A stretch of 64,000 nucleotides of DNA from assembly GCA_000092065.1 (NCBI GenBank), contig CP000589.1. One strand, 5' to 3'. This stretch comes from Ostreococcus lucimarinus (lineage: Eukaryota). The notes under the pieces are model-generated. The model was not told the DNA's origin, searched no databases, and saw only the letters and a program-made list of their open reading frames with translations. Of this stretch, positions 271 through 39,808 are shown piece after piece. A program made the position numbers and the translations under genes. The stretch's first letter is position 1. The number at the start of each line of letters is the position of its first letter.

Positions 271-1932
271 ATGTCGGCGATGGATCTGCAGGGCGTCGGG
301 CGAGAGACGCGGAAGGCGGCGGCGGAGGACGATCGCGCGGAGGACGCGCCGGCGACGAACGCGGAGGACGAGAGCGAGCTCGATATTTGGCGCGCGGCGG
401 CGTATGGGAACGTCGACGCGATGAAACGGATGATCGATGCGGACGAAGGGTGCGTGAACGCGCCGGATGGGTCGGGATTCCGCGCGCTGCAGTGGGCGGC
501 GCTGAATAATAGAGTCGCGGCGGCGACGTTGTTGCTCGAACGCGGGAGTTCGATAAACGCGGGGGATAACGATGGACAGACGGCGCTGCATTGGGCGTGC
601 GTGCGAGGGTCGCTGCCGTGCGCGGAGTTGCTGCTGCGGAAAGGAGCGGAGTTGAACGCGGCGGATTCGCGGGGATACGTGCCGCTGCACGTCGCGGCGC
701 AGTACGGTCACACCGGGATGATTTATCACTTTAAAATGCGATGGAACATCGATGTTGACGTCACCGATCACGACGGTCGAACGGCGCTGCACTGGGCGGC
801 GTACAAAGGGTTTCCCGATCCCGTCAAGTTGTTGGTGTGCATGGACGCGGACGTGTACCGGGCGGATAAGGAAGGCTGCACCGCGCTGCACTGGGCCGCC
901 ATCAAGGGCAAGAGCGAAGCCGCGCATTTAATAGTCCGCGCCGGCGGTTTGAACGCCATGACGGCGGTCGACGTCGACGGAAACACGGCGGAGGCGCTCG
1001 CGCTCGAGAAAGGCCATCACCTCCTGGCGAATTTCCTCGCCAAGGAGCAGCGCGCGCTTTTGAGGCGCGATAATTTTTGGACGCAAAAAGGCTTGGCTGT
1101 CGCGTGCCTCGGCCTCATCGTCGGATTGATGCTGATGTTCTCGCATTACGTCATCTTCGCCGAAGGCGTCGCCACGATGGACGTGACGTTGTCGTTTTGG
1201 TCGCTCGTCAGCCTCGCCTCGGCGAGCTGCGGATTGTACTACATGAAGCGCGTCTCGCAAGCCGACCCGGGGGTCGTCACCGCCTCTATTTTATCCTCCA
1301 TTCGCCGAGGCGCGCGACCGAGCTCGGCGGCGCATGACGTGGACGAGCGATTAAATCACGCCGAGCTTTGGGCCGGAAACTGGAACCAGCTCTGCGTGAC
1401 GTGCAAATTCGTCAAGCCGTTCGGCACGAAGCACTGCGCGGTGCGCGACAAGTGCGTGGCGCGTTTCGATCACTACTGTCCGTGGATGGGGAACACGATC
1501 GGGAAGAGAAATCACAGAGACTTCGTCATCTTTCTCATTCTCGAGTCTCTCGCCATGGCGATCGCCTTTTGCGTCGCCATCGCGCGTTTCAACGAAGAGT
1601 CTCCGACGGAGCGCTTTCGCTCCACCGGGGGCATCGCCTGCTTCGCCGTCTTCGACGCCCTCACTCTCCTCCCCGTCGCCTTGCTCACCGTCGCCCAGCT
1701 CAGTCAAGCCGCCCGGAACATCACCACCAACGAGCTCTCCAACGTCCATCGCTACGCCTACCTCAAATCCGCCGAGGGCAGGTTCGCCAATCCGTTCGAC
1801 CGCGGCTCGTTCGCGCGCAACCTTCGCGCGTTTTTCCTCGTCGGCAAGAAGGAGCCTCTGATCGACGACGTCGCCGCGCGCGGCGTCGCCGTCGGGTTCG
1901 ACGAGCGCCACCCCTTAGATCGCATCGCTTGA
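271..1932 (+). CDS. Ankyrin-repeat DHHC-type palmitoyltransferase (Akr1/ZDHHC17-like)
   Basis: N-terminal ankyrin repeats (TALHWA.. x5), TM segments, DHHC-CRD 'CVTCKFVKPFGTKHCAVRDKCVARFDHYCPWMGNTIG'; ATG at 271. Confidence 0.85.
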   Translation: MSAMDLQGVGRETRKAAAEDDRAEDAPATNAEDESELDIWRAAAYGNVDAMKRMIDADEGCVNAPDGSGFRALQWAALNNRVAAATLLLERGSSINAGDNDGQTALHWACVRGSLPCAELLLRKGAELNAADSRGYVPLHVAAQYGHTGMIYHFKMRWNIDVDVTDHDGRTALHWAAYKGFPDPVKLLVCMDADVYRADKEGCTALHWAAIKGKSEAAHLIVRAGGLNAMTAVDVDGNTAEALALEKGHHLLANFLAKEQRALLRRDNFWTQKGLAVACLGLIVGLMLMFSHYVIFAEGVATMDVTLSFWSLVSLASASCGLYYMKRVSQADPGVVTASILSSIRRGARPSSAAHDVDERLNHAELWAGNWNQLCVTCKFVKPFGTKHCAVRDKCVARFDHYCPWMGNTIGKRNHRDFVIFLILESLAMAIAFCVAIARFNEESPTERFRSTGGIACFAVFDALTLLPVALLTVAQLSQAARNITTNELSNVHRYAYLKSAEGRFANPFDRGSFARNLRAFFLVGKKEPLIDDVAARGVAVGFDERHPLDRIA

Positions 1933-2248
1933 TTCGTAATCAACGTTTCACAGTCGTCCCGCGCGTCCTCGTCGATCCGCCTCGTCGATCCGTCGTCGCC
2001 TCGCGCGCTCGCCTGGGTGCCCACGCCAACGGTCGTGGCATTTTCCACATCGATCGTCATCGCGCGACGCACCGTCGCGTCGACGCCGCGCCGATCGCGC
2101 GCCGCGCGCGACGCGAACGATCGACTCGAGCGCGACGCGCGACGCGCGCGCGCGACGCCGAACGAACGACGAACGACGAACGATCGAACGATCGAACGAT
2201 CGCTCGCGGTTTGAACAGATTTGAAACCGAAACGACTCGACGACGGCG

Positions 2249-2752
2249 ATGCCCAACGCGACGACGCGCGGGACGACGCGGACGATCGCGGGACGCGCGA
2301 TGACGCGCGCGACGACGCGGTGCGTGACGCGCGCGCCGCCGAAACCGCGGACGCGGACGGGGAGCGACCGCGCGGTGCGAAGCGCGCCGGCGCCGGTGAG
2401 CGCGGCGCAGCGAAGAAAACCGCGAGGACGGCGATCGCGCGATGCGACGGACGACGATCGCGCGGACGATGGGAACGGTGGCGATGGTGGCGATTGGTTC
2501 GGCGGCGGCGGCGGCGGCGGCGACGGGGGCGACGGCGACGACGGCGAGGACGAGGACGCGTTTCGAATGGACGCCGACGAGTTGACGGCGTTCGAGCGCG
2601 CGTTGTTCTCGGAGATTGAGGTCATGGACGCGCACGCGTTGTACGCGTGGCAGAGCGCGTGCGCGGTGACGCTCGTCGGGTGCGTGCAGCACGTGATCGA
2701 CGTCGCCGCGGCGAGAGCGCGCGGGTTCGGCGACGCCGTCGCCTTCGCGTGA
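2249..2752 (+). CDS. Possible small protein (Arg/Thr-rich N-term, (GGC)n-encoded Gly/Asp linker, ~55-aa non-repetitive C-term)
   Basis: Only ORF in the unusually long 940-bp gap between flanking genes; C-terminal part has coding-like GC3 usage; no recognisable domain. Confidence 0.2.
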   Translation: MPNATTRGTTRTIAGRAMTRATTRCVTRAPPKPRTRTGSDRAVRSAPAPVSAAQRRKPRGRRSRDATDDDRADDGNGGDGGDWFGGGGGGGDGGDGDDGEDEDAFRMDADELTAFERALFSEIEVMDAHALYAWQSACAVTLVGCVQHVIDVAAARARGFGDAVAFA

Positions 2753-2873
2753 GCGATCCGAGACGACGAACCGGTCGTCCGCGCCGACGCGCGCTGTACG
2801 CTACGAAGCCATCACGTGGAGTGTTGTGCATTATCTTTTTCCGATCCACGGTGTTGTATATCAGTTGTAAACG

Positions 2874-3767
2874 ATGCGAAGCGAACGCGTTCGTCCGCAC
2901 TTCGCCGCGCGCGCGATGGCGTCGCGCCCTCGAGTCCTCGTCCTCGCCCGCGCGTCGTCCGCGTCGTCCGCGACGACGCGCGCTCCCGAGTACCGCGCCG
3001 CGGGCTATCGCACGTTCGTCGATCCATCGCCGAGCGCGAGCGCGACGCGCGTAAAGATTGACTGCGGACCCGTGCGCGCCTACACCGGCGGACGTTACGA
3101 CGGCGACACGCTCCGCGCGCCGTGGGATTCGGCGCAGACGACGCCCAAGGGCGACGGAGCGTCGAACTCGACGACGCAGCGCACGTACGTGTTCGACACG
3201 ACGCTCGCCGGGGCGAGCGAAGTGCTGAGCGTGACGGCGGCGAGGCCGCTGGGAATAATCTTCGAAGACGACGCCGACGGACGCGCGCGCGTCGCTGATT
3301 TCGTGAAAGGGAGCGATGCGGCGCGAGCGAACGACGTCGCGGCGCTGGCGCCGTTCGGAAGGCAGTGCGCGCGACGAGGGGACGTGCTGCGGGCGTTCAC
3401 GGCGACGCAGGTGGTGTATCGGACGACGGCGGCGCTGACGGGGGATTTGAGCGGTACGAAACGCGTGCGGACGCTGTTCGGCGCGGACGAGGTGCCGTGG
3501 GGGGAGGTGAGCGCGGCGTTGGCGAACGGGAGGGTGGCCGATGGGCCGATCACGTTGGTATTGGAACGCGACGGCGATCGCGAACGCGCCGAAAATTGGC
3601 CGAGAAGAGAAGAGGAGCTCGAGTTTAGGGGGTTGGGCGACGAGAGCACGCAGGCGAAGAGGCAGCGAGAACGCTTCGAATCGGATGAAGACACCGAACG
3701 GGCGAATATCGCCTTCGCGGGCGCGATCGCGGCGTTTGTTCTGTTGATCCTCGCCGGGTTCTCGTAG
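2874..3767 (+). CDS. Hypothetical protein with PDZ-like fold region and C-terminal TM anchor (transit-peptide-like N-term)
   Basis: ORF; 'LGIIFEDDADGRARVADFVKG...GDVLRAF' PDZ-like; hydrophobic tail 'IAFAGAIAAFVLLILAGF'; ATG alternatives 2874/2916. Confidence 0.5.
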   Translation: MRSERVRPHFAARAMASRPRVLVLARASSASSATTRAPEYRAAGYRTFVDPSPSASATRVKIDCGPVRAYTGGRYDGDTLRAPWDSAQTTPKGDGASNSTTQRTYVFDTTLAGASEVLSVTAARPLGIIFEDDADGRARVADFVKGSDAARANDVAALAPFGRQCARRGDVLRAFTATQVVYRTTAALTGDLSGTKRVRTLFGADEVPWGEVSAALANGRVADGPITLVLERDGDRERAENWPRREEELEFRGLGDESTQAKRQRERFESDEDTERANIAFAGAIAAFVLLILAGFS

Positions 3768-3828
3768 AGCTGTAGAGGAGAAATCGAAATCGCGCGCGCA
3801 TTGTTTGTACATTGATTTATACATTCAT

Positions 3829-5308
3829 TTAAAGTTTCCTTCGCTCGGCTTCGACTTTTCCTTTCAGTCTTTCGTGCGTGCGGTTTCGAGACGGCGTCGG
3901 CTCCGGCGTCGTGTCGGTGTCGATGCCCACGACCGTGCCGCCGGCTATCTCCTCCGCCAGCGACGCGTCGACGCTCAGTTTGTTCGACGTGTCCAGGAAC
4001 AACATCAAGTCGCGATTTTCTTCCTCGAGTTCTTTGATTCTCGCGTCTTTTATCGCCAATTCGATCGTTTTACGCTTTTCAGCGCGCGTCGCTTCCGCCC
4101 TGAGCGTCTCGACGTTTTCAGCCAACGTATCGCTGAGCGCGTGCGCGTGCTCGAGCTCGTCGCGGAGCTGTTCAATCGACGCCACGTGCGACGCGTTCGC
4201 CTTTTGAAGCATTTTCAATTCACGTTTGGCGTCCTTCGCTTCGCTCATCGCTCGCGCCACCACGGCGGCGTTCCTACTGTCCTCGTCTTCTCGCGAGATC
4301 GTCCCCGCGCACCTCGCGTTGGCCGTCTGGAGCAAGCCTTCGAAATACTTGCGTTGCGATTCGAGCTGTGACGTCAAGAGTAAGTCGTACTCGCTCGCGA
4401 TGGCGTCGAGTTTGGACGCCACCAGCGCTTCCTCGAGTTGTGCGTCCAAATCGCCGACGTCTGGCGCGCGAATCGGCGAGCACGCCGCGCCGCTCGCGTC
4501 CGAAGACGACGCCCTTCGCGTCGACGGCGGCGGCGTCAGTTCGACGAGTCCGCTCTTGCTCTGAATCAACCGGTGCACGAAGCCATCTGAGACGTAATCC
4601 CACACGCGTTGCGTTCCGAGCTCGAGCGCGTACGTGTGATTCGTCTCCGTCCAGTGATTCACCGCGCACGCCCCCGCGTAGCGTCCGCACCGCACTTCGC
4701 CGCAAATCAAGCACACCCACAAATCGTGATCCTTACCGCACGTCGCGCACCGCGCCTTGCTCTCCGGCTCGTGCGCGTACCGACACACCGGACACGACGC
4801 GTCCGCCCACCCGCTCAGGCACTCCGCGTGAAACGCGTGTTCGCAAATCGTCGTCACTATTCCCGACGCCTCCGCGTCCAGCCTATCCAGGCACACCGGA
4901 CACGTCGGCACCTCCGTTCCCAGCGTCCCGCTCGCCTCCGCCCCCTCCTCCACGCGCACCACGCGCACCGCCACGCACGTCTCCTCCCGTCCCATCGCGT
5001 ACCTCCGCCCGTGATAATTCTCCACGAACGCGTCCGCCGCGTCGCCGTCGTCGAACTCCAGCACCGCGTCGTACGTCGACCGCGCGCCGTCGCCGCGTCC
5101 CGCCACCGCGCGCACCGACCGCGTCGTCGCCATCGCGCCCGCGACGAATCGACAGAAATCCGCGATCGCGATCGCGCTCGGCACGCCGACGACGCACGCC
5201 GCGTTCGCGTTCCGTCGCGTCGTCGTCGCGCATCCGTCGTCGCGCGTCGTCTTGAACAATCGCACGCGTCCGCGCGTCGCGCCGACCGTCGGCGCGCCGT
5301 CGGCGCGT

Positions 5309-19679: not shown

Positions 19680-21647
19680 ATGGCGCCCGCGCGTCGTCGC
19701 CCCGCGGTGCGCGCGCCGTCCAAGCGCGCGTCCTCTGCCTCGCGCGCGGGCGCGCGAGACGCCTCGCGCGCGTCGCCATCGCCGTCGACGACCGCGTGGA
19801 CCGTCCTGTCGAGACTCTTCGCAACGACGTTTTCACGCCGCGCCGCGCGCCGCGAGGACGTCGAGCGACGACGAACTCGCGCGCGCGCGCTCGCCGTCGC
19901 GTGTGTCGCGTGCGCAGCGACGTACCTGCGAGAGGTGTACGTCCCGGCGGCGGTGCGGGACACGTTCGTGGACTCGCTGCCGGATTGGGTGAACGACACG
20001 GTGCTCGCGCGATTGCCGGCGTTGGAGTTGCAGCCCGAAACGAGGTCTCGCGAGCGTGGACCGGGCGTCGAACTCCGCGAACGAGGTCTGACGCCGAAAC
20101 ACCCGGTCGTCATCGTGCCGGGATTCGTGAGCACGGGATTGGAACTGTGGCGAGGAAAGGCGTGCGGCGCACATTTTTTTCGACGGCGAATGTGGGGAAC
20201 GCCCGCGATGGCGCGCGCGTTCTTCAGTAATCAAAAGTGTTGGATGGAACACATGCGACTCGATGGACGCACAGGATCTGATCCGGAATCCGTTCGGCTG
20301 CGCGCCGTCCGAGGGCTCGAAGGCGTTGATTGGTTTCTGCCTGGTTATTTCGTATGGGGTAAGGTGATAGAAGAGCTCTCGGAGTTGGGATACGATTCAA
20401 ACACACTTCACAGCGCGGCGTACGATTGGCGTCTGAGTCCCACGATGTTAGAGCGTCGGGATGGGTATTTCACTCGGCTCAAGAGCGTTATAGAGACGCT
20501 ATACTCGGTGCACGGAGAGCGCGTTGCCTTGCTCGCGCACTCGTACGGCGATACGATTTCTAGATACTTCTTTGAATGGGTCGAGACACCTGTGGCGAAA
20601 GGCGGTGGCGGTGGAGGGAAGCGGTGGGTGGACAAACACGTCCACGCGTACGTAGACATAGCGGGCCCCATGTTGGGTATTCCGAAGACGATTCCGAGCT
20701 TGTTGAGTGGAGAAATGCGAGACACGGCTATTCTCGGGGAGCTCGAGGGAATGCTCGGCGGACTTCTAGAGACTGCTGTCGGGCGCTTGATTGGCACACA
20801 GATTAAAGAGGTTTGTGACACCTTTCGCACGTGGGGTGCGCTGTGGGCCATGCTCCCTCGCGGCGGCGCGGCGGTGTGGGGGGACGATGACGCCGGCGCG
20901 CCCGAGAGCGGCGCGCTGAATTTCTTCCTGCAAATGCGCGCCGCAGGCACGTCGCGCGAAACCAGCTTCAATCACACCGTGGATAGCGCTCTTGGATTCC
21001 TCTTCGAGCAACTCGCCGATTCGGTGCCGCACAACGTGGCCGAGTTTAGCTCGACCATCGATCGAGCGTCGCGAGAGCGACTGAAGACGCGCGTGCCGGA
21101 CTTGGAGGCGAAAACGGCGCCGAACTTCGGCGACCCTTTGCGAAGTGCTCTGCCGAGGGCGCCGAACATGAAGATTTTCTGCCTGTATGGTGCGGGAAAG
21201 CCGACGGAACGCGCGTACGTATACGAGCGATTCGACGCCGACGCGCTTCGCCCCTACCAGCTCGACGTCCAGTCGCGAGATGCCGCTCTCACGCACGGCG
21301 TCTGGCAGGTCGACGGCGACGGCTCCATCCCCCTTGCCTCCCTCGGCTACGTCTGCCGCGAATGGCGCGTCAATCGCGCCCTCAATCCCGCCAACGTCTC
21401 CGTCGTCACTCGCGAGTACGCCCACCGCCCGCTCCCGCTCTCCGTCGGCGGCTTCCAGGGCAAATCCGAGGGCGATCACGTCAACATCATGGGCAACGAG
21501 GACATGATTCGCGACCTCCTCACCATCGTCGCCGGTCGCGCGCACGCCGTCCCCCCCCGCGTCGTCAGCGACGTCGACGCGCTCGCCGCGACGATTCGCG
21601 CCCGCCTCGCCGCCGCCGCCCCCCTCCCGTCTCCCCAATCCTTCTGA
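19680..21647 (+). CDS. PDAT: Phospholipid:diacylglycerol acyltransferase (LCAT family, PDAT)
   Basis: 'KHPVVIVPGFVSTGLELWRGKACG', 'AAYDWRLSP', 'LLAHSYGD' (lipase GxSxG-like), 'IPLASLGYVCREW', 'HVNIMGNEDMIRDLL' colinear with Arabidopsis PDAT1; N-terminal TM. Confidence 0.85.
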   Translation: MAPARRRPAVRAPSKRASSASRAGARDASRASPSPSTTAWTVLSRLFATTFSRRAARREDVERRRTRARALAVACVACAATYLREVYVPAAVRDTFVDSLPDWVNDTVLARLPALELQPETRSRERGPGVELRERGLTPKHPVVIVPGFVSTGLELWRGKACGAHFFRRRMWGTPAMARAFFSNQKCWMEHMRLDGRTGSDPESVRLRAVRGLEGVDWFLPGYFVWGKVIEELSELGYDSNTLHSAAYDWRLSPTMLERRDGYFTRLKSVIETLYSVHGERVALLAHSYGDTISRYFFEWVETPVAKGGGGGGKRWVDKHVHAYVDIAGPMLGIPKTIPSLLSGEMRDTAILGELEGMLGGLLETAVGRLIGTQIKEVCDTFRTWGALWAMLPRGGAAVWGDDDAGAPESGALNFFLQMRAAGTSRETSFNHTVDSALGFLFEQLADSVPHNVAEFSSTIDRASRERLKTRVPDLEAKTAPNFGDPLRSALPRAPNMKIFCLYGAGKPTERAYVYERFDADALRPYQLDVQSRDAALTHGVWQVDGDGSIPLASLGYVCREWRVNRALNPANVSVVTREYAHRPLPLSVGGFQGKSEGDHVNIMGNEDMIRDLLTIVAGRAHAVPPRVVSDVDALAATIRARLAAAAPLPSPQSF

Positions 21648-22117
21648 CCGCGCCTTCGCTTCGTTTCCGACGCTTTAGCCACGCGCAGAATATATTTTCG
21701 CCGCGCGCCCGCGCCTCGTTCGCGCTTTCGGTCGTCGTCGTCGCTTCGCGCGTTCGCCTTCGCGTCGCGCTCGCCTTCGCGTCGCCGCGCCTCTATGCGC
21801 AAACAGTCACGACCGAACGACTTTCGCGCGCGCGACCGCGATCCATCGCCCGATCGCGTTCGATCGCGGTCGCCACTCGCGCGCGCGAGATTCGTCGCGC
21901 ACGAACGCCGCGAACGCTCGCCTCGCGAGGGCGCGCGGCGGTAAAAGTCGCGCGCGCCGATCGCGACGCGCGCGCTCGACGGCGACCGCGCGACGGAGTC
22001 GACGACGCGCGCGACGCATCGTTCGAACGGTCGAAGGATTCGAAGGAATCGCGGCGGCGCGCGAAACCGAAGCGCGAGGGCGCGAGGCGGCGAGGAGACG
22101 ACGCGAGCGCGCTGGGA

Positions 22118-23200
22118 ATGACCTCGCGGGGATTGCCGATGGACGTGAGCCTGCGATTCCTGTCGGACGAGGACGATGGACAGCGCGGGGGGGGCGGGAA
22201 GCCGTACGCGCGGCGAGGCGGGAAGAAGGCGAGCGGAAGCGCGAACGGGAAAGGGAGCGGTGGATCGAGGGGAACGACGTCGGAGGCGAATGTGAAGCGG
22301 AGCGAGAAGTACGGGGCACCGAAACCGCGGAAACCGCGCACGTTACGGCTGGATGTGGACGAAGATCGAGTGGAGGAGTATTGCGTCGCGTTGCGCGAGC
22401 ACCAGGAGTTGACGCGCGTGTACGACTATCACGCGAAGATTGTGGATAAATGCGACGAGTCGCAACTTCTGGCGTTCATGGCGCGCGTGTTGAAGTCTGT
22501 CATCGATAACATTGTCGAGGAGAACACCGCGCACGGACAGTACTTGGCGAAGGCGACGTTGAGATGCGACGTCGGCGCGTTGCACATTCTCGACGCGTTT
22601 TGCGTGACTCTCTACAAAAAGGCGGAGGAGTATAACAAGTATTCCCCGGATTTGCTCTTGCTCGAATCCGTGATGAGTGATTCGCGTCAAGACCCAGACG
22701 CTGCCGTCGATATGAACCTTCTCGCCATAGAATTCGGCTTCAACGCCAGATTGTGCGATTGCTTGAACAAAGTCATCGAAGAGACGGCGGAGAAGAAGGG
22801 GCTGACGGAGGCGGACAAGAAGCGCTTGCAACGACGATGGCGACTTTGGTTGAAGAACAAAAGCTTTGACGACTGCCGACCCAATCCATTCAATCATGCG
22901 CAGTTATCCACGTACGTCGAGCCGCCGTACACGATCAACTACCAGCTGCATACCAACGAGAGCGCGGTGTTCGCGGTTCTGACGTCGGACCAGATCAACC
23001 CCTTCGCGATGCAGTGCAAAACGCTCGGCGAGGCGCCGAAGAACGCTCCCGAAGAGATCGAAATCTACGACAGTAAAACCAAGAAGGGAAAAACGTTTCA
23101 GGAAATTGTCGACATATTGCAGAAGATCGTCAAGAGCCCTCGAGCGACGCAAGGCGCCCAAAAGGCCAAGGACGAAAACATCTTTCGCTACCAACGCTAA
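22118..23200 (+). CDS. Hypothetical conserved-looking protein (no domain recognised)
   Basis: ORF with good GC3 coding usage, Gly/Lys-rich N-term then a globular region; ATG 22118 is the first after the PDAT stop. The upstream 250 codons of the ORF overlap PDAT. Confidence 0.5.
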   Translation: MTSRGLPMDVSLRFLSDEDDGQRGGGGKPYARRGGKKASGSANGKGSGGSRGTTSEANVKRSEKYGAPKPRKPRTLRLDVDEDRVEEYCVALREHQELTRVYDYHAKIVDKCDESQLLAFMARVLKSVIDNIVEENTAHGQYLAKATLRCDVGALHILDAFCVTLYKKAEEYNKYSPDLLLLESVMSDSRQDPDAAVDMNLLAIEFGFNARLCDCLNKVIEETAEKKGLTEADKKRLQRRWRLWLKNKSFDDCRPNPFNHAQLSTYVEPPYTINYQLHTNESAVFAVLTSDQINPFAMQCKTLGEAPKNAPEEIEIYDSKTKKGKTFQEIVDILQKIVKSPRATQGAQKAKDENIFRYQR

Positions 23201-23226
23201 ACGTTGAACTATATTTTTTGAACTAT

Positions 23227-23250
23227 AATTTCGAAGAGGCTTCTTCGAAA
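23227..23250 (+). other. Perfect 10-bp-stem hairpin (atttcgaaga-ggct-tcttcgaaat) ~30 bp downstream of a stop codon
   Basis: Inverted repeat in an AT-richer 3' flank; possible 3'-end/processing element. Confidence 0.4.
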
Positions 23251-23481
23251 TCGTCGTCCGACACTTCGCCTTTCGTTTCCGCGGTAGACTGTTGACACAC
23301 TCATTAGTGACGTACCATCGTCCAGTATAATAATTACCGACCACTGTTGTGCCTTTCTTCGCTTCGCCGCGTCTTCGCGCCTCGCGTCTCCTCGTCGCCG
23401 ACGCCATCCACCGCCGACTCGCCTCTCGCCTCAGTTCACCGCGCGCTCGCGAGCGCCGCGCCTCGAGCGAGTGCGGTCACC

Positions 23482-24495
23482 ATGCTCACCGCGCGCTGCG
23501 TCATCGCGCTCCCCGCGCGCCGCGCGTCGCGCGCTGCGTCCCGTCGAGCGCGCGCGCCGTCGACGTCGACGTCAGCCATATCTCCCGGTCGCGCTCTATC
23601 CGCGTCCTACGACGCCGCGGACGCGATCGACCCGATGTCGAGCTACGATGGCGCGTCCTGCGTCGTCACCGACTCCATCGACGCCGACGAGATCGACCGC
23701 ACGCGCGTGGGGGAGACGCTGAGGGAACAAATCGCAAACATGGGAGGGGAGCAGCTGATGGACCCGCGAGACTTCGTGTCCACGGACGCGCAGCGACGAC
23801 AGTGCGCGGTGTTGTTCGCGTCGTGCGCGGCGTTAGTCGGGAAGGGGATGTATGAGTTCGGATGCGATGGATTCACGGCGATGGAGGCGATGATGGCTGT
23901 CGGAACGATCGGGTTGGCGTACTGGACGAGCGACCTGGGCACGGGGATATTTCACTGGAGCGTGGATAACTACGGGAGTAAGGCGACACCGTTGCTCGGT
24001 GGGGTGATTGATGCGTTTCAAGGGCACCACAAATACCCGTGGACGATCACGAAGCGGCAGTGGGCGAATAATGTGCACACCACGTGCGTGGCGCCGCTCG
24101 TGTTCACCACGCCGACGCTGTTGCTCAACGATCGGGCGACGGATTTGATATTCGTCGGCGTTTTCACGTCTTTGATCGTACTTAGTCAACAGTTCCACGC
24201 CTGGAGTCACATGAAAAAGAGCGAGTTGCCGCCGCTGGTGCTCAAGGCGCAAGATATGGGGCTTTTGGTCGGACGTCGCGACCATGGGCAGCACCACAAG
24301 TCGCCGTTTGAGGGTCACTATTGCATAGTCAGTGGGTACTGGAATCCGATTCTGGACGGCAGCGGGTTTTTTCGCGCGCTCGAACAAGCCGTGTTCAAGG
24401 CCACGGGCACGGCTCCGCGCTGCTGGTCGGATGACGTCGAGTTCATCGTGCAGGAAAGCGCCCCCGAAGGCTGGGGGCGAGGCGTGCTCAAGTGA
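23482..24495 (+). CDS. FAD4: FAD4-like fatty-acid desaturase (TMEM189/Kua-domain, plasmanylethanolamine-desaturase family)
   Basis: His boxes 'FHWSVD', 'QGHHKYP', 'HAWSH', 'HGQHHKSPF' with TM segments; transit-peptide-like N-term (MLTARCVIALPARRASRAASRR). Confidence 0.75.
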   Translation: MLTARCVIALPARRASRAASRRARAPSTSTSAISPGRALSASYDAADAIDPMSSYDGASCVVTDSIDADEIDRTRVGETLREQIANMGGEQLMDPRDFVSTDAQRRQCAVLFASCAALVGKGMYEFGCDGFTAMEAMMAVGTIGLAYWTSDLGTGIFHWSVDNYGSKATPLLGGVIDAFQGHHKYPWTITKRQWANNVHTTCVAPLVFTTPTLLLNDRATDLIFVGVFTSLIVLSQQFHAWSHMKKSELPPLVLKAQDMGLLVGRRDHGQHHKSPFEGHYCIVSGYWNPILDGSGFFRALEQAVFKATGTAPRCWSDDVEFIVQESAPEGWGRGVLK

Positions 24496-33984: not shown

Positions 33985-35238
33985 CTATTCCAGCCGGGCG
34001 GGACCTCGGTCCGCCGTCGCGGCGATGTACTTACCAGTCTTTCTGCAGCGGTCGACGTCGTACCCACCGACGAGTTTCGCGCGAATACGATCGGGTAGCT
34101 TGAGCGACGCCTCGACGTCAGCCTTCGTCGCCCCGCGGCCGAGCAAGCGTTCCATGTGCTCGCGGCGCACGCCGTTTTCGAGCACGTCGCGCGTCTCCAC
34201 GCCGCTCTCGTGACTGTCCCATCGAACGCGCTCTTGAAGTTCTTCGTGCATCGCGCGCAAGACGGCCTGCGCCAAGGCGAGCTGACCTTGCGTCTCGGTT
34301 ATCTTGGATTTGAGGTCTTCGGCGTCGCAATCTTCCAAGTCGTCAAAGTACACGCCGCATTCGCGTACGTTGTACGATTCCCCGGTGACTTGGCTCGTGA
34401 GCGTCAAACCTTCGTGCAAGCGATCGATGAGATCGGCATCGACGACGCGACGCGTGAAACAGTCTTCGGGAATGACGCCGCACGATCCAACCTCGAGACC
34501 GCGACGTATTTCTTCTAGATGCGCGATTCGCAAGTGTAGCGCGGCGACGCGACGATCGCGTTCGGCGATCTTTCGCACCAAAGGTTCCGCCTCGCTTTGG
34601 AGCCCTCTGTATCGGCCGAACTCTTCCGCGAACTTCCCCTCCCCGCTCCACGCGAATTCGTACTTGGTCTTTCCCTTCTCGTACCCCTCGTCGCCCTCTT
34701 CTAATTTCCGCGGCGTCCACACCTCGGGATTCTTCCCGACGCTCGCCGCGCGCGTCCCGAGCGACCGCGCGCCTTCGGCCACGACTTCACACATCGCACT
34801 CGCGCACGCTTCCATCGCTGGATGTAACGGGTCGATCGTCAACGCTCCGTCCAACACTTCGCACGTCCCTCGACCGTCGTCATCTCTCGCGTTACCGAAT
34901 CGCAGCTGCACCGCCGCGCCGCGTTCCGCCAACGTCCCGAGCTGTCGCTGCGCCACCTCTCGCGCGTCTACGATCTTCGTCAGCCTCGGTTCGATCGATC
35001 GCGTGAACCTCACGCCGTGAATTTCGATCAAGCACGTATCGCACGCGCGCGACACGCGCCCGTCGCCGTCCTCAACGCGCGTCAAGCGCGTCATGTGCCC
35101 GGTCGTCCCAGTCGTCGTCGCGCGCACGAGTTTCGAGCGTTTCGTGCGGTCGAAGCGGAACGCGATCGTCTTCGCTCGAACGGTGGCGTCGGCGGACGAG
35201 GTAAACATGACGCGCACGTCGTGCGCGACGTCGGTCAT
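33985..35238 (-). CDS. Hypothetical protein (N-terminal beta-rich domain, central coiled coil, C-terminal 'LKLPDRIRAKLVGGYD' tail)
   Basis: Clean 417-codon ORF from ATG 35238 with coding-like composition; no family recognised. Confidence 0.5.
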   Translation of the reverse strand: MTDVAHDVRVMFTSSADATVRAKTIAFRFDRTKRSKLVRATTTGTTGHMTRLTRVEDGDGRVSRACDTCLIEIHGVRFTRSIEPRLTKIVDAREVAQRQLGTLAERGAAVQLRFGNARDDDGRGTCEVLDGALTIDPLHPAMEACASAMCEVVAEGARSLGTRAASVGKNPEVWTPRKLEEGDEGYEKGKTKYEFAWSGEGKFAEEFGRYRGLQSEAEPLVRKIAERDRRVAALHLRIAHLEEIRRGLEVGSCGVIPEDCFTRRVVDADLIDRLHEGLTLTSQVTGESYNVRECGVYFDDLEDCDAEDLKSKITETQGQLALAQAVLRAMHEELQERVRWDSHESGVETRDVLENGVRREHMERLLGRGATKADVEASLKLPDRIRAKLVGGYDVDRCRKTGKYIAATADRGPARLE

Positions 35239-35470
35239 CGCGCGATGGCGCGCGCGCGAGTGCGGACGGCGTCAGCGTTCGCGTTTCGTTTTTTTCGAGC
35301 GTTTCTCGAGCGTTTCGACGCGCGACCGCGCGTCTCCGAAATGCGCGAAACACCCCCCCGCGTCTCCGCGTAGTTCGCGTCGCGCCCGACCGCACGCAGA
35401 CGCGCGCGGTGGCGATGCGAGGCGGTACGCGTTACGTTGACTCCGTGCGCACGATCGCGCGTCTCGCGCG

Positions 35471-37447
35471 ATGACGGCGCGCCATGACGCGCGCGCGCGA
35501 GCCGGTCGACGCCGCGTCGTCATCGTCGCGGTGTTGGCGGCCTGGGCGTGGGCGACCGCGGCGAGTGCGGCGCCGTTCGAGAACGCCGCGGCGCTCAAAG
35601 CAGCGGTGAACAATTGCCTCGCGGCGAGTCACACGGGTGATTGCGATTGCTCGAGCGCGTCTGTGGACTGTGGGGCGGCGGGGAGCGACGCGATGTCGCA
35701 GTGGGACACGAGTCTGGTTCCGGACATGAGCTACTTGTTCCACGACGCCCGTTCCTTCAATCAGTCCATCGGGAACTGGAATACGAGTCAAGTAACGAAC
35801 ATGGTTGGGATGTTCTTGTACGCCGCTGCTTTCAATCAGCCCATCGGGAACTGGGACACGAGTCAAGTGACTAACATGACTGACATGTTTGCGATCGCCC
35901 GTTCCTTTAACCAACCCATTGGTGACTGGAACACGAGCCAAGTCATGGACATGCGTTTTATGTTCGCTACTGCTTATGCTTTCGATAGTCCTATCCGCAA
36001 CTGGGACATCAGCCAAGTGACGAACACGAGTTACATGTTCTATTCTATTGCTGCATCTTTCAATGTTTTCAACCAATCCGTCGAGAACTGGAACACGAGC
36101 CAAGTTATGGACATGCGTGGGATGTTCGGGAACGCACGTTACTTCAACAAGCCTATCGGCGGCTGGAACACGAGCCAGGTTACGGACATGCGTAACATGT
36201 TCGTTACCGCCTCTTCCTTCAACCAGCCCATCGGTGACTGGGACACGAGCCAGGTTACGGACATGCGTTACATGTTCGCTACCGCCTCTTCCTTCAACCA
36301 GCCCATCGGTGACTGGGACACGAGCCAGGTTACAGACATGCGTGGAATGTTGGGGTCTGTGTCCTTCAATCAGCCCATCGGGAACTGGAACACGAGCCAG
36401 GTTACAGACATGCGTACGATGTTCGCTACCGCCTCTTCCTTCAACGCGCCTATCGGTGACTGGAACACGAGCCAAGTTACAGACATGGGTAGAATGTTTT
36501 ACGCAGCCTCTTCTTTTAACCGGTCTATTGGCGACTGGAACACGAGCCAAGTCACGGACATGCAGTCGATGTTTTACGCCTCTTCATTCGATCAACCCAT
36601 CGGGAACTGGGACACAAGCCTAGTCACATACATGAATTCGATGTTCAACAGCGCAGTTTCCTTCAACCAGTCTATCGGTGGCTGGAACACGAGCCGAGTG
36701 GTGAGCATGCAGTCGATGTTCGCGAACGCATTTTCCTTCAACCAGCCCATCGGGAACTGGAACACGGGCCGAGTGGTGAGCATGCATTCCATGTTTGACA
36801 GCGCAGTTTATTTCAACCAGCCCATCGGGAACTGGAACACGGGCCGAGTGGTGAGCATGAATTCCATGTTTGACAGCGCAGGCTTTTTCAACCAGCCCAT
36901 CGGGAACTGGGACACGAGCCAGGTTACAGACATGAATTCCATGTTTGATAGCGCAGGCTCTTTCAACCAGCCCATCGGGAACTGGAACACGAGCCAGGTT
37001 ACAGACATGAATTCCATGTTTGATAGCGCAGGCTCTTTCAACCAGCCCATCGGTGACTGGGACACGAGCCAGGTTACAGACATGCATTGGATGTTCCAGG
37101 GTGCCTCTTCCTTCAACCAGCCTATTGGAGACTGGGATACGAGCCAAGTGGTGACCTCGTACTCATTTAGCGAAATGTTCAAGGACGCAACGGCGTGGCT
37201 ATGCTCACACACACACAATACGTCGGATCCGATGCATTTTCAAAGATACTACGATGGTCCACCGTCTTTTTGGTTCGAGTCAGCGGCTGGAATCGGTGCA
37301 GTGTGCTTGTCTCCACCACCGCCAACCACACTACCGTGTGTATATGTCGCCGCCCCTCCGTTGACCGCAAGGTCGACTGGAACCGCGAGGTCGAGTGTCG
37401 CACTCTCGCTATATACGACAGTCATTATCATATACTTCCACGCCTGA
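35471..37447 (+). CDS. Secreted/surface tandem-repeat protein, 20 x 25-aa 'FNQPIGNW[ND]TSQVTDMxxMFxxAxS' repeats (Mycoplasma DUF285-type motif)
   Basis: Signal peptide '[20 protein letters not shown]', a ~60-aa head, then 20 near-regular 25-residue repeats, a Cys-containing tail and a hydrophobic C-terminus (GPI/TM-like). Confidence 0.75.
35700..37200 (+). repeat. 75-bp tandem repeat array x20 (coding; DUF285-like protein)
   Basis: Periodicity evident at DNA and protein level; units 17 and 18 identical at protein level ('NW[DN][22 protein letters not shown]'). Confidence 0.9.
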
Positions 37448-37642
37448 AACTGAGACAGAAACTGAGACATCGCACATTCACAAATCCTACAAGGATATGA
37501 TACCGTAGTCATAGTGGATATATACAGTGCTGCTCTCGCATTTCCAGTTCCTACCTGATGAATACTGGATTATGGGGTGATTTTCAAACAAGTGTAGAGT
37601 ACTAGCCTCCATTTCTCGCTTGTTCTTGAAATACAACTTGAA

Positions 37643-39808
37643 TTACAACTCGAGGCAAACTGAGGGCGTCGAGACATAATCGCCATCACCTGTCGCAGCG
37701 CGCGCGAAAATCTCTATCACGACGTCGGCGGCGGTGGCGGGCGTGAGTCCGCACGCCACGACGGGAACGACGATGATAGAAACGTCGTACACGCGCCGAA
37801 TCGCCGACGCGAGAGTCTCACTGAGCGCCGAATCGACGCTTAAATTATGATACAGTCGGCATGTGGACACATGCGACGCGGTCAGCTCGGCTTCGCCTAA
37901 ATACAGTGCGATTCGTGCCAAGATGTGCCCGTTGGTGAGCTCATCACTTTTCAAGACGGCTTGTTTGACGCTGATTGAACACTGGAGGAATCGCCCTGGG
38001 CGGCGAACGCTCGTCGATTCCATCACGTCGCAAGCCGAGTCGCCTCGCACAGACTCGCGCACGAGCGTTTCCTCGCCATCGAACGATTCTTCGTCGCCGA
38101 GAGGTCCTGTGCCGACGAGCAACGTGGGAGCGATCTCACCGATGGCGTTCTTTGGAAGATCGGTGACGGTGAGGTACGTCGTCGTCGGGCGCCATAGAAA
38201 TCTTCGTCCACTCTGCGCGACGACGCGTTCGAAGGACGCCGACATCACGTTCGCTGGATGCACGCCCTCTGCTTCGTAGTCTGCGTTGTACTTCGCACTA
38301 GTGTAGAACGTCACCGCCAGCGCTCGTTCACCAAGTGGCGCACCCGTGATGTCTGCGACAGCGACGGCGCTCGCCATCGCGCGGTCGAGTTGGGCAACTA
38401 TTCCGGGCACCAAGTCTAACGTTGTCGGCTCCATACCGATTTGCCCGGCCACGTACGCCAGGCCGTTCACACGAATCGACTGACCGTACGGCCCGATGCA
38501 CGCGGGAGCCCACGACGACAGTGACTGCACGTGTAGTGATTTTCGTTCGTTACCGCCGTCGAGGATGAACAAGCAATCAATCTGAACCTTGGCGTCGCCG
38601 GGCAAGCACGTGGCGACGCACGCGCGGGCGCTGGGCGCGACGGGCGGCATGTATCTAGAATACACGCCATTAACCGTTGCGAACTGGCTCATATCATCTA
38701 GATAAACGTGCGTCATGGCGACATTACGCCACGCCTCAGTCGCCCCGTCCTCGCCGAGTTTTTCGGCGACGAGAGCGCGCATCGTCTGAAAAATAGCCTC
38801 CGCACACGTTTCGTGCGTCTCGCTCGCTGGATCTGCGGCGCGCAAAGACACCGAAAGTATCGAACCCACTAAGCCTATCGTGTGATGCACACGGCAGGTC
38901 GTACCTGTGACTGCAACGCAACCTTCGGTTTCGGCCGTGAACTCCAACGTCGCGGACGCCGTCGCCGACGCTCTCACGCGAGGCGCGTCGTCTTCGACCC
39001 AAATCACCCTCCCGGGCGCGATTTCATCCCCCTTCTCTTTGAGCACGACGTCAAACGCGTCGATGACCAAGTGACCGCTCGGCGCGAATCGATCTTCGCT
39101 CGTCTTCACCGTCCTCGTCTCCGTAATCGCCAAACTCGCGCGAGCGAACATCGGACAATCCACCACGAGCGTCTCAAACTCCCCGCCTTCGCCCGCGCAG
39201 TGCGACCCGTACTCATCTTCAACCCTAATCAGCGTCTCCCTCGCGTCCGCGATGGACATCCCCAAGTGTTTCCCCGGATCCAATCCCATCGCCGCCACCT
39301 TGACCAGACGCGCGTCGACGCCCTCCGCCTCCACCCGCCGTAAAACCTCTCGCTGTTCCACGCGCCACAGCGGCGCCAACGACGTCAGCCCCAGGCTCGC
39401 GCACACCGCTTCCACCCGCAACCGCTGATAATCGCTCAGTATCGCCCCCGAGCACACGCTATTCACATCCGGTCGCTCGCGTTTCGCCGCCGCCAACGCC
39501 GCGCGCAAATCCTCCACCTCGTCCCCCTCCTCTCCGTCCCCGTACTCCAGCCCCAGCGCCTTCGACCGCCCCGTGATCCGTCGGCGGTACACGTCCAACC
39601 CCGCGCACGCCGCGAACGCCCCCACGCACTCGTGCGCGACCGTCTGAAAGCAGTGCGAGTCCACCTCGCGCGTCGCCGCGTCCCTCGGGCACAGGTTGAC
39701 GAGGCACGCCACCGTCGCGTCCGCGCGCCTCGACGTCTCGATCGCCGCCAAAACGCCGTCCTTGCCGCCGGACACGAGCGCCGCGCACGCGTACCGCCGC
39801 TCGGGCAT
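37643..39808 (-). CDS. DPH6: Diphthine-ammonia ligase (DPH6/ATPBD4): PP-loop ATPase + two RidA/YjgF domains
   Basis: 'AALVSGGKDG' PP-loop, 'SVCSGAILSDYQRLRVEAVCASLGLTSLAPLW', then two RidA-like modules ('..AGQIGMEP..'). Same architecture as yeast Dph6. ATG 39808. Confidence 0.85.
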   Translation of the reverse strand: MPERRYACAALVSGGKDGVLAAIETSRRADATVACLVNLCPRDAATREVDSHCFQTVAHECVGAFAACAGLDVYRRRITGRSKALGLEYGDGEEGDEVEDLRAALAAAKRERPDVNSVCSGAILSDYQRLRVEAVCASLGLTSLAPLWRVEQREVLRRVEAEGVDARLVKVAAMGLDPGKHLGMSIADARETLIRVEDEYGSHCAGEGGEFETLVVDCPMFARASLAITETRTVKTSEDRFAPSGHLVIDAFDVVLKEKGDEIAPGRVIWVEDDAPRVRASATASATLEFTAETEGCVAVTGTTCRVHHTIGLVGSILSVSLRAADPASETHETCAEAIFQTMRALVAEKLGEDGATEAWRNVAMTHVYLDDMSQFATVNGVYSRYMPPVAPSARACVATCLPGDAKVQIDCLFILDGGNERKSLHVQSLSSWAPACIGPYGQSIRVNGLAYVAGQIGMEPTTLDLVPGIVAQLDRAMASAVAVADITGAPLGERALAVTFYTSAKYNADYEAEGVHPANVMSASFERVVAQSGRRFLWRPTTTYLTVTDLPKNAIGEIAPTLLVGTGPLGDEESFDGEETLVRESVRGDSACDVMESTSVRRPGRFLQCSISVKQAVLKSDELTNGHILARIALYLGEAELTASHVSTCRLYHNLSVDSALSETLASAIRRVYDVSIIVVPVVACGLTPATAADVVIEIFARAATGDGDYVSTPSVCLEL

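Follow-up and report, generated by a model that had tools for sequence, protein, structure and literature searches.

A DUF285/PARCEL repeat gene carried by a polymorphic derived insertion beside DPH6 in Ostreococcus lucimarinus

The window analysed here, a stretch of 64,000 nucleotides from the genome of Ostreococcus lucimarinus CCE9901, contains an inserted segment whose sole gene is a DUF285 reading frame; it lies between the gene for diphthine-ammonia ligase (DPH6) and a gene coding for a protein of 417 residues (Table 1). The product, 658 residues long, opens with a putative signal peptide and an N-terminal cap, continues with 19 regular units, each about 25 residues long, followed by a degenerate twentieth, and ends in a low-complexity tail. 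An earlier note on this DNA had assigned it to the DUF285 family, and two profiles confirm this well above their cut-offs: PF03382 of Pfam matches in six stretches with 641.7 bits (cut-off 25, E=1.4e-196) and TIGR02167, the PARCEL repeat of NCBIfam, in 11 stretches with 256 bits (cut-off 30). The Pfam search returned no other family at E<=0.01, be it an LRR-type, BspA-like LRR_5 or FNIP model, and a PDB sequence search gave no solved structure matching the protein at the same threshold. By itself this family call adds nothing new, since the DUF285/PARCEL genes of O. lucimarinus were catalogued in 2010, with ten PARCEL ORFs for strain CCE9901 (Roske et al., 2010; PMC2996958). Such genes have been described since then in Ostreococcus, Micromonas, diatoms, mycoplasmas and giant viruses, and their function was still called 'enigmatic' in 2025 (PMC11992049). 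The present gene is probably XP_001419612.1 of that catalogue (17 domains, chromosome 9), an identification argued from an accession number close to that of the neighbour, XP_001419608.1, and not from a comparison of sequences. An exact look-up found no database record identical to the 658-residue product, so that the RefSeq model must differ from the ORF, and the unit peptides of this array have no match in the accessible part of the supplement to PMC2996958. Finally, the three antisense frames that the earlier note had dismissed as artefacts are indeed present, and a Pfam search of them gave sub-threshold noise only, nothing passing the cut-off of any family.

Table 1. Features of the inserted segment and of its gene, in positions of the window
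Feature	Position	Strand	Basis or remark
Derived inserted segment, 2,376 bp, with the whole gene on board	35316..37691		Empty-site contigs and outgroups
Part of the insert upstream of the ORF, GC 0.73	35316..35470	+	Presumed own promoter and 5' UTR, from position
Coding sequence, DUF285/PARCEL protein	35471..37447, including stop codon	+	ATG-to-stop ORF, 658 aa, O. lucimarinus CCE9901
Putative signal peptide, residues 1-33	35471..35569	+	Arg-rich n-region, hydrophobic core, A-S-A before predicted cleavage site
N-terminal cap, residues 34-77, four cysteines	35570..35701	+	Homologous caps in relatives
Regular repeat units, n=19	35702..37132	+	Sixteen of 25 codons, one of 29, two of 24
Degenerate 20th unit	37133-37207	+	36-44% DNA identity to other units; acts as C-terminal cap
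Degenerate 20th unit and C-terminal cap, residues 555-604	37133..37282	+	WDTSQVV...ATAWL... motif
Pro/Thr/Ser-rich tail, residues 605-658	37283..37444	+	pLDDT < 50
AT-rich 3' end of the insert, GC 0.42	37448..37691		Composition
New DPH6 C-terminal tail and stop codon, last 49 bp of the insert	37643-37691	-	Comparison with ancestral form
Antisense ORF, 372 aa	35432..36550	-	By-product of periodic array
Antisense ORF, 175 aa	36620..37147	-	By-product of periodic array
Antisense ORF, 136 aa	36808..37218	-	By-product of periodic array

Anchoring on the pattern W[DN][TI][SG] divides the array into 20 in-frame units, the number given earlier: 19 are regular (16 of exactly 25 codons, with 29 codons in unit 5 and 24 in units 9 and 12), and the last is degenerate. 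Tandem Repeats Finder reports the 75-bp period over 35745-37149 as 14.5-17.6 copies, with 73-79% matches and a score of up to 933. The unit is that of the PARCEL/DUF285 proteins, W-D/N-T-S-x-V-T-x-M-x-x-M-F-x-x-A-x-x-F-N-Q-P-I-G-x (Roske et al., 2010; PMC2996958); it has the same amphipathic pattern, in which a conserved, hydrophobic framework is interspersed with hydrophilic positions that vary, and shows no difference at the level of the family. A possible further likeness to the PARCELs would be the short ACATG...CATGT palindromes, which stem here from the codons of D-M-x-x-M-F. Inverted repeats of the type (G)(A)ACAT(G)...(C)ATGT(T)(C) occur, as a raw count, in 13 of the 19 regular units, with arms of only 4-6 bp, whereas the palindromes tabulated for PARCELs are much longer, at 19-58 nt (PMC2996958). 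Units 17 and 18 had been described as identical at the protein level; they share 23 of 25 residues and 72 of 75 nucleotides, including an exact repeat of 67 bp, and two other pairs, 7 and 8 (96% at the DNA level) and 15 and 16 (95%), are just as close. Most remaining pairs reach only 60-80% identity, so that most of the array is old and the three close pairs stand for young duplications or conversions.

Selection on these units is strikingly uneven. Eight positions (W1, T3, V6, M9, F13, A16, F19 and I23) are invariant in 16 of 16 units despite synonymous variation at the same codons, while positions 10, 11, 14, 15 and 17 each exceed 2.5 bits of entropy. Between units, pN/pS is 0.023 for the framework (pS 0.61) as against 1.19 for the five hypervariable positions. 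Purifying selection on the framework is strong; the value near 1 at the variable positions reflects relaxation or diversification and is not proof of positive selection. AlphaFold2 models the units with confidence (pLDDT > 90) as a right-handed solenoid with one short beta-strand per unit, like that of solved leucine-rich-repeat (LRR) proteins, and every structural neighbour is an LRR protein. Global superposition is nevertheless poor (Foldseek TM 0.13-0.25), which implies that curvature and packing differ from those of BspA-like and classical LRR ectodomains; no specific structural template for the solenoid was retained, the scores being too low. These ectodomains (plant LRR receptor kinases, internalins, Leptospira LIC, Bacteroides BACOVA_04585 4fs7) also differ in sequence, as their LxxLxLxxN signature is missing here and the comparison with BspA-like models advocated by the earlier note yielded no LRR match in Pfam at E<=0.01. 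The FNIP/FGxxFN LRR proteins of Cafeteria roenbergensis virus (CroV539 7zal, CroV588 6nyr) are built of 22-residue units against 25 here, are cytoplasmic and have no signal peptide (PMC9525666), and the FNIP model of Pfam finds nothing in the present protein at E<=0.01.

In the arrangement that we propose, the cysteine-containing N-cap, the 19 units and the C-cap would stack into one continuous solenoid, the eight invariant hydrophobic or small residues of each unit (W, T, V, M, F, A, F, I) forming its core. Positions 10, 11, 14, 15 and 17 would then line one face which, by analogy with LRR receptors and adhesins, may be a ligand-binding surface. We know of no ligand for any eukaryotic DUF285 protein. 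The same solenoid might instead have a structural or physicochemical role at the surface, ice-binding, antifreeze-like or as a cell coat, and no role in binding or recognition. High latitudes show an enrichment of DUF285 transcripts from diatoms and other phytoplankton, and the solenoid of the family has been compared to antifreeze proteins (PMC11992049). By analogy, the regular T/S/N ladders of the units (W-N-T-S, F-N-Q) may also recall ice-binding beta-solenoids. Yet strain CCE9901 comes from temperate coastal waters, and a diversified binding surface accounts more readily for the five hypervariable positions of each unit than would a flat and regular ice-binding face. The structural neighbours are all ligand-binding LRRs and the gene, as seen below, is dispensable in most wild genomes. 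We regard such a role as improbable.

As for the location of the protein, the claim of an N-terminal signal peptide finds support: the leader reaches a Kyte-Doolittle mean of 2.0 over 19 residues, it carries the ASA motif, and in the relatives P0316-P0319 unrelated hydrophobic leaders end in ASAA directly before the shared type of N-cap. The call is heuristic, combining hydropathy with the pattern of n-, h- and c-regions and A-x-A. A cleavable signal peptide of this kind would route the protein into the secretory pathway. Its predicted extracytoplasmic location, together with the repeat, recalls the DUF285 surface lipoproteins of Mycoplasma (LppQ/LppC, Mbov_0838 NF045896) and the secreted MbovP0145 (PMC8707762). 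By contrast with these lipoproteins there is no lipobox cysteine, the leader ending ASA/AP and the first cysteine being residue 49, the signal peptide and caps are of another kind, and the NF045896 model gives 355 bits where its cut-off is 500. The N-cap is 62-78% identical to P0316-P0319, which are short fragments of secreted proteins from marine metagenomes, and 55-59% identical to the one found at the start of every DUF285 module in a huge, eukaryotic-looking multi-module membrane protein of 2,847 residues (L022/L023/L026); the ATAWL...DGPPS.W motif of the C-cap likewise closes every module of the L022/L023 protein. The N-cap occurs throughout the family and is not specific to eukaryotes, for a Bacteroidetes-type T9SS protein (L025) carries one too. 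The closest N-caps as a whole (55-78% identity) belong to marine metagenome genes. At the other end, the C-terminus is hydrophobic, as the earlier note had it, over the last 16 residues (37397-37444), with a best 19-residue Kyte-Doolittle mean of 1.28 against the usual threshold of 1.6 for a transmembrane helix. The sixteen N-x-S/T sequons of the protein and its Pro/Thr/Ser-rich stalk with a short hydrophobic end would fit a glycosylated, surface-tethered molecule. Among the loci examined, the tail matches only alleles of the same gene; because the hydrophobic end is short and not conserved elsewhere, it is uncertain whether the protein is held at the surface, by a GPI-like or other anchor, or simply set free.

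The gene is not a fixed component of the species. Six independent metagenome contigs (L001, L093, L094, L098, L099 and L100), 98.7-99.5% identical to the window on both sides, jump from 35315 to 37692 at identical breakpoints and have 31 bp in place of the 2,376-bp insert, this being the ancestral allele. At three syntenic outgroup loci (L089, L090 and L091) the insert is absent as well, and DPH6 directly adjoins the homologue of the 417-aa gene. Absence from both sets shows that the insertion is derived and still polymorphic in the ocean. The filled allele was independently assembled in L017, L018, L034, L004 and L097, and appears to be the minority form in metagenomes. This presence/absence polymorphism had escaped the earlier note. 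A transposable element or mobile cassette was considered and rejected: 31 bp were replaced and no target site was duplicated, searches of the insert ends for terminal inverted repeats and tRNAs were negative, Rfam gave a single chance match below its threshold, and the two ends share no direct or inverted repeat of at least 9 bp. The region upstream of the ORF presumably represents the gene's own promoter and 5' UTR, and the whole cassette, from promoter to 3' end (35316-37691), would have been inserted between DPH6 and the 417-aa gene, entering through illegitimate recombination or break repair and not as a transposon. Taking structure and population data together, we consider it likely that the locus holds a functional nuclear gene for a secreted DUF285/PARCEL solenoid of LRR-type fold, probably exposed at the cell surface, carried by this polymorphic insertion. 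Its presence in some wild genomes and absence from others would make it an accessory, strain-specific surface determinant.

The filled alleles are themselves variable. That of L017 has one unit fewer, through a 75-bp deletion, a patch of gene conversion and an in-frame insertion of 9 bp that falls in 37133..37282 (20th unit and C-cap), and its ORF, 636 residues long, remains intact throughout. It also has, at 35323/35324, an extra AT-rich piece of 77 bp with the direct repeat CGCGCGTCTCCGAA on either side. This allele comes from a short-read metagenome assembly, and its differences within the repeat array could be partly chimeric. Since the independent contig spans the whole locus with 18+1 units, copy number is no assembly artefact, and the collapse of the array that might have been feared did not occur. 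The concerted evolution proposed from the window, by gain and loss of units and gene conversion, is seen here directly between alleles, and unequal crossing-over together with conversion among units may well be the way in which the array evolves. Preservation of the frame despite indels in a second allele shows that this is a real coding gene. It might still be a decaying passenger, no longer expressed or useful and on its way out of the population, a view that we find very unlikely. The apparent rarity of the filled allele speaks for it, as do the absence of any transcript-derived homologue among the matches of the protein homology searches and the nature of the tail beyond the C-cap, of low complexity, with a low GC3 (0.57) and without homologues other than alleles of the same gene. 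Against this, the 1,974-bp ORF is intact in two alleles whose indels are all multiples of three, and the framework has remained invariant. To be sure, the selection signal of the framework mostly predates the insertion, and is compatible with a very recent loss of function.

Where the insert came from may be asked of its composition. The earlier note had placed relatives of the gene in Mamiellophyceae, Mycoplasma and giant viruses, and this stands (PMC2996958; PMC5917014), contigs of giant-virus metagenome-assembled genomes encoding DUF285 homologues with 51-54% identity. It had further seen a possible trace of transfer between kingdoms. A recent and direct import from a bacterium or a giant virus, of which the 2.4-kb insert would be the footprint, would agree with a family that is patchily distributed and has thousands of members among bacteria and archaea in the homology search, with the lineage-specific character of the insert, and with its unusually AT-rich 3' end, where 200-bp windows covering 37381-37710 rank in the bottom 0.5% or so of the 64-kb window for GC; horizontal transfer of PARCELs has moreover been argued before (PMC2996958). 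The codons of this copy tell otherwise. GC3 is 0.715 in the array and 0.82 in the N-terminal part, like the 0.72-0.81 of host genes, and this host-like codon usage makes a recent bacterial import unlikely. Low GC as a mark of foreign origin was rejected, the drop lying in GC1 (0.40) and GC2 (0.44) and being explained by amino-acid composition. Upstream of the ORF the insert is rich in GC, its putative signal peptide is of the eukaryote type and lacks a lipobox, the nearest N-caps are those of the secreted marine fragments and the eukaryotic-looking membrane protein, and no bacterial or viral match exceeds about 63% identity, values inflated by the consensus repeats. The best full-length identities (59-63%) are those of kinase-DUF285 fusions, bacterial-looking by sequence composition and not by taxonomic assignment; with the search saturated by consensus repeats, they are uninformative on origin. 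This copy does not have the look of a transfer between kingdoms, and recent import seems to us quite unlikely. The functional nuclear gene that we favour would have been supplied by a donor resembling the host in codon usage, most probably a different locus of Mamiellophyceae; among the loci examined and within the 64-kb window, the C-terminal tail and the insert's 5' and 3' portions outside the repeats match only alleles of the same locus.

What the locus offers is a clean natural experiment: the gene is present in some genomes of a species, most others keep an intact ancestral empty site, the polarity of the insertion is clear and its breakpoints are exact. The PARCEL ORFs of O. lucimarinus and O. 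tauri are non-syntenic (PMC2996958), a distribution suggestive of mobilisation that the present copy shares. The mobilisation of such ORFs within eukaryotic genomes, a speculation in 2010, is thus directly observed at one site, as an insertion still segregating within the species, and this is new, as are the allelic loss of a unit, the conversion and the rewritten 3' end of DPH6. Gene conversion and copy-number change at the level of units are seen between alleles of a eukaryotic DUF285 array, and in a pair of haplotypes otherwise 99% identical, phenotypes such as virus adsorption, bacterial attachment, aggregation or cold tolerance could be compared. A wider conjecture, doubtful but not far-fetched, is that the DUF285/PARCEL genes of picoeukaryotes are self-contained cassettes, from promoter to terminator, inserted at arbitrary sites by break repair, in the present case with the end of a housekeeping gene rewritten, and kept as low-frequency presence/absence alleles that make up a strain-specific repertoire of hypervariable surface receptors. 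If so, this repertoire would shape which prasinoviruses, bacteria or mating partners attach to the cell, and the locus would be the first DUF285/PARCEL cassette caught segregating.

The insertion also left its mark on the neighbouring gene, as it replaced the last codons of DPH6. The protein ends in ...IFARAATGDGDYVSTPSVCLEL in the window as against ...IFARR(D/H)DRHT in the ancestral form, and the window's tail is found in none of the empty allele, L091 or the 12 sampled members of the DPH6 cluster. The ancestral ending is common to the empty allele, L091 and 11 of the 12 sampled members with a C-terminus, the twelfth, P0181, ending in IFARRDETYVD.

The DUF285/PARCEL locus is a genuine, selected gene for an LRR-type protein predicted to be secreted. 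The tandem-array reading frame at 35471..37447 (+) singled out in the earlier note is real and encodes 658 residues, and its assignment to DUF285 stands, PF03382 being the sole Pfam family returned (641.7 bits versus a cut-off of 25, E=1.4e-196). Among NCBIfam models, the PARCEL repeat TIGR02167 scored 256 bits (cut-off 30) and the Mycoplasma Mbov_0838 lipoprotein 355, under its cut-off of 500. Scoring covered more than 7,700 homologues, with source names 'BspA family leucine-rich repeat surface protein' or 'surface protein'. DUF285 proteins, abundant in bacteria, phytoplankton and giant viruses, have been described as solenoids related to LRRs and of unknown function (PMC11992049), and Aureococcus virus AaV carries DUF285 genes (PMC5917014). 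PARCELs were defined, and equated with DUF285 and TIGR02167, by Roske et al. (2010; PMC2996958), who located O. lucimarinus PARCEL ORFs on chromosomes 1, 2, 4, 9, 14, 18, 19 and 20, non-syntenic with those of O. tauri, and proposed horizontal gene transfer and intragenomic mobilisation. The supplement of that paper tabulates XP_001419612.1 with 17 domains; judged by accession proximity, this is probably the present gene, two proteins encoded beside it being identical to XP_001419820.1 and XP_001419608.1 (O. lucimarinus CCE9901). The family assignment was therefore already known. What is added here is that the copy at this locus was inserted recently and remains polymorphic in wild O. lucimarinus, that the insertion changed the 3' end of DPH6 (the diphthine-ammonia ligase gene on its right), and that unit loss and conversion distinguish the arrays of its alleles.

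Features of the insertion locus, the encoded protein and a multi-module relative
Feature	Position	Strand	Remarks
Derived insertion	35316-37691		2,376 bp; replaced 31 bp
Regular units, n=19	35702-37132	+	16 of 25 codons; unit 5, 29; units 9 and 12, 24
Last (20th) unit	37133-37207	+	degenerate
DPH6-like gene	37643-39805	-	intact 720-aa ORF from MPERRY
Signal-peptide-like leader	residues 1-33		Arg-rich start, 18-residue hydrophobic core, A-S-A before predicted cut
N-cap	residues 34-77		4 cysteines
19 regular units	residues 78-554
C-cap	residues 555-604		ATAWL...DGPPSFW
Pro/Thr/Ser-rich tail	residues 605-658		final 16 residues hydrophobic
2,847-aa multi-module protein	L023 211-8754	+	also L022, L026

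The left neighbour (XP_001419820.1; 417 aa, 33985-35238, minus strand) has no Pfam domain; in every Ostreococcus-like locus examined it keeps its place beside DPH6, with 47-96% identity. The window was compared with metagenome contigs bearing an identical copy of this protein. In six independent contigs (L001/L092, L093, L094, L098, L099, L100) the site is empty: identity is 98.7-99.5% on both sides, the alignment jumps from 35315 to 37692, and 31 unrelated bases fill the junction. L002 and L003 stop exactly at the left breakpoint. The filled allele, which appears to be the minority among sampled contigs, was assembled independently in several: L017 reads through both junctions, L018 and L034 include the right one, L097 matches the window at 100% identity, and L004 covers the left junction within a chimeric contig. 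There, positions 1-988 follow the empty-site haplotype (37847->37692, 31 bp, 35315->34520) and 989-4960 the filled one, beginning inside the array at 36828, which suggests that a single sample contained both alleles and that assemblies tend to break here. Three syntenic outgroup loci have the 417-aa homologue next after DPH6, 89-109 bp away, with no DUF285 sequence between them in any of the three; their DPH6 is 94% (L091) or 58% (L089, L090) identical, with gene order conserved. Because of the empty contigs, the outgroup synteny and the ancestral end of DPH6, the polarity is clear: the insert is derived and the empty site ancestral.

The DPH6 of the empty allele and that of L091 share a C-terminus in ...IFARR(D/H)DRHT. 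The window DPH6 ends in ...IFARAATGDGDYVSTPSVCLEL, its last 16 codons and stop (37643-37691) coming from the DUF285 insert. Of 12 DPH6 cluster members sampled, not at random, with their C-terminus present, 11 have the IFARRDDRHT end, one (P0181) ends in IFARRDETYVD, and none has the window tail. The RefSeq model at this locus is apparently only a 215-aa partial protein (XP_001419822.1).

The ends of the insert have no common direct or inverted repeat of at least 9 bp, no transposase, tRNA or RNA family was found within it, and the target was partly deleted, not duplicated. Transposition was rejected on these grounds; the lack of repeats and transposase, together with the target deletion, favours illegitimate recombination or break repair. 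As for the donor, the array has a GC of 0.52 versus about 0.63, a drop due to amino-acid composition (GC1 0.40, GC2 0.44); its GC3 is 0.715 versus 0.72-0.81 in host genes, and 0.82 in the N-terminal part. Given this host-like GC3, the insert is unlikely to have come recently from a bacterium or virus; most likely the donor's codon usage resembled that of Ostreococcus. Apart from alleles of this locus, no match to the non-repeat 5' and 3' parts of the insert or to the C-terminal tail was found among the loci compared or elsewhere in the window. The 3' end is the only compositionally odd part of the insert, 200-bp windows over 37381-37710 falling in the lowest ~0.5% for GC across the 64 kb, beside a 77-bp AT-rich segment that L017 carries in addition (215-291) at the left edge, between 35323 and 35324. 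Copies of the direct repeat CGCGCGTCTCCGAA flank this segment, and the window allele resembles a product of its microhomology-mediated deletion. A 12-bp motif, GAAACTGAGACA, stands twice in tandem at 37446-37470, overlapping the DUF285 stop codon where the AT-rich 3' region begins. The sole other 200-bp GC equally low (about 0.46) in the 64 kb is at 23031-23370, between ORFs 21362..23200 and 23347..24495.

Tandem Repeats Finder gave a 75-bp period across 35745-37149 (73-79% matches, scores up to 933), and anchoring on the tryptophan motif 20 in-frame units. DNA identity between units is mostly 60-80%, with three near-identical adjacent pairs (7/8, 96%; 15/16, 95%; 17/18, 96%), the last containing a 67-bp exact repeat. 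The earlier note had taken units 17 and 18 as identical in protein, but they differ at 2 of 25 residues; its unequal crossing-over, together with gene conversion, is directly supported by L017 versus the window, with the proviso that repeats assembled from short reads may be chimeric. L017 lacks exactly one unit (36205-36279), units 7 and 8 being fused; in unit 10 the variable core has been swapped for unit 13 sequence, several single changes bring neighbouring units 15 to 18 closer together, the C-cap has an in-frame 9-bp insertion, and the protein remains intact at 636 aa. The antisense ORFs described previously are present on the minus strand (372, 175 and 136 aa), with no Pfam family above threshold. 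A 13-bp-period repeat, CGCGCCATGACGCG (2.4 copies, 35465-35496), overlaps the DUF285 start codon and creates a second in-frame ATG 5 codons downstream (MTARHDA...), so that the exact initiation codon is ambiguous.

Across the sixteen 25-residue units, W1, T3, V6, M9, F13, A16, F19 and I23 are invariant, while positions 10, 11, 14, 15 and 17 each exceed 2.5 bits of entropy. Between units (Nei-Gojobori), pN/pS is 0.023 at 11 framework positions, with pS 0.61, and 1.19 at the five variable ones; hence the units are mostly old, with a framework under strong purifying selection. From these ratios the five positions per unit are taken to be free or diversifying, a pattern that reads as the signature of a binding scaffold. 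The variable residues may line up on one face of the solenoid, and by analogy we infer a candidate binding or recognition function.

The leader reaches a 19-aa Kyte-Doolittle mean of 2.0. Four metagenome fragments (P0316-P0319) have hydrophobic leaders unlike that of the window protein, ending in ASAA exactly where the same N-cap starts, which supports the predicted cleavage. At the C-terminus the hydrophobic run is short, its 19-aa Kyte-Doolittle maximum being 1.28, and may be a GPI-like signal. On GC-rich contigs, a 2,847-aa membrane protein, read as eukaryotic from size, composition and architecture, contains at least three DUF285 modules, each enclosed by N- and C-caps like those of the window protein; beyond the modules lie a Cys-rich region, several hydrophobic segments and a long tail of charged residues. 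The cap type recurs in a Bacteroidetes-style T9SS protein (L025) and is thus family-wide, and giant-virus MAG contigs hold relatives at 51-54% identity. DUF285 arrays are also fused to Ser/Thr protein kinase domains, N-terminal in P0109, P0026 and P0064, which look bacterial by composition, and C-terminal in P0101, where the array comes first and the kinase last, as in receptor kinases.
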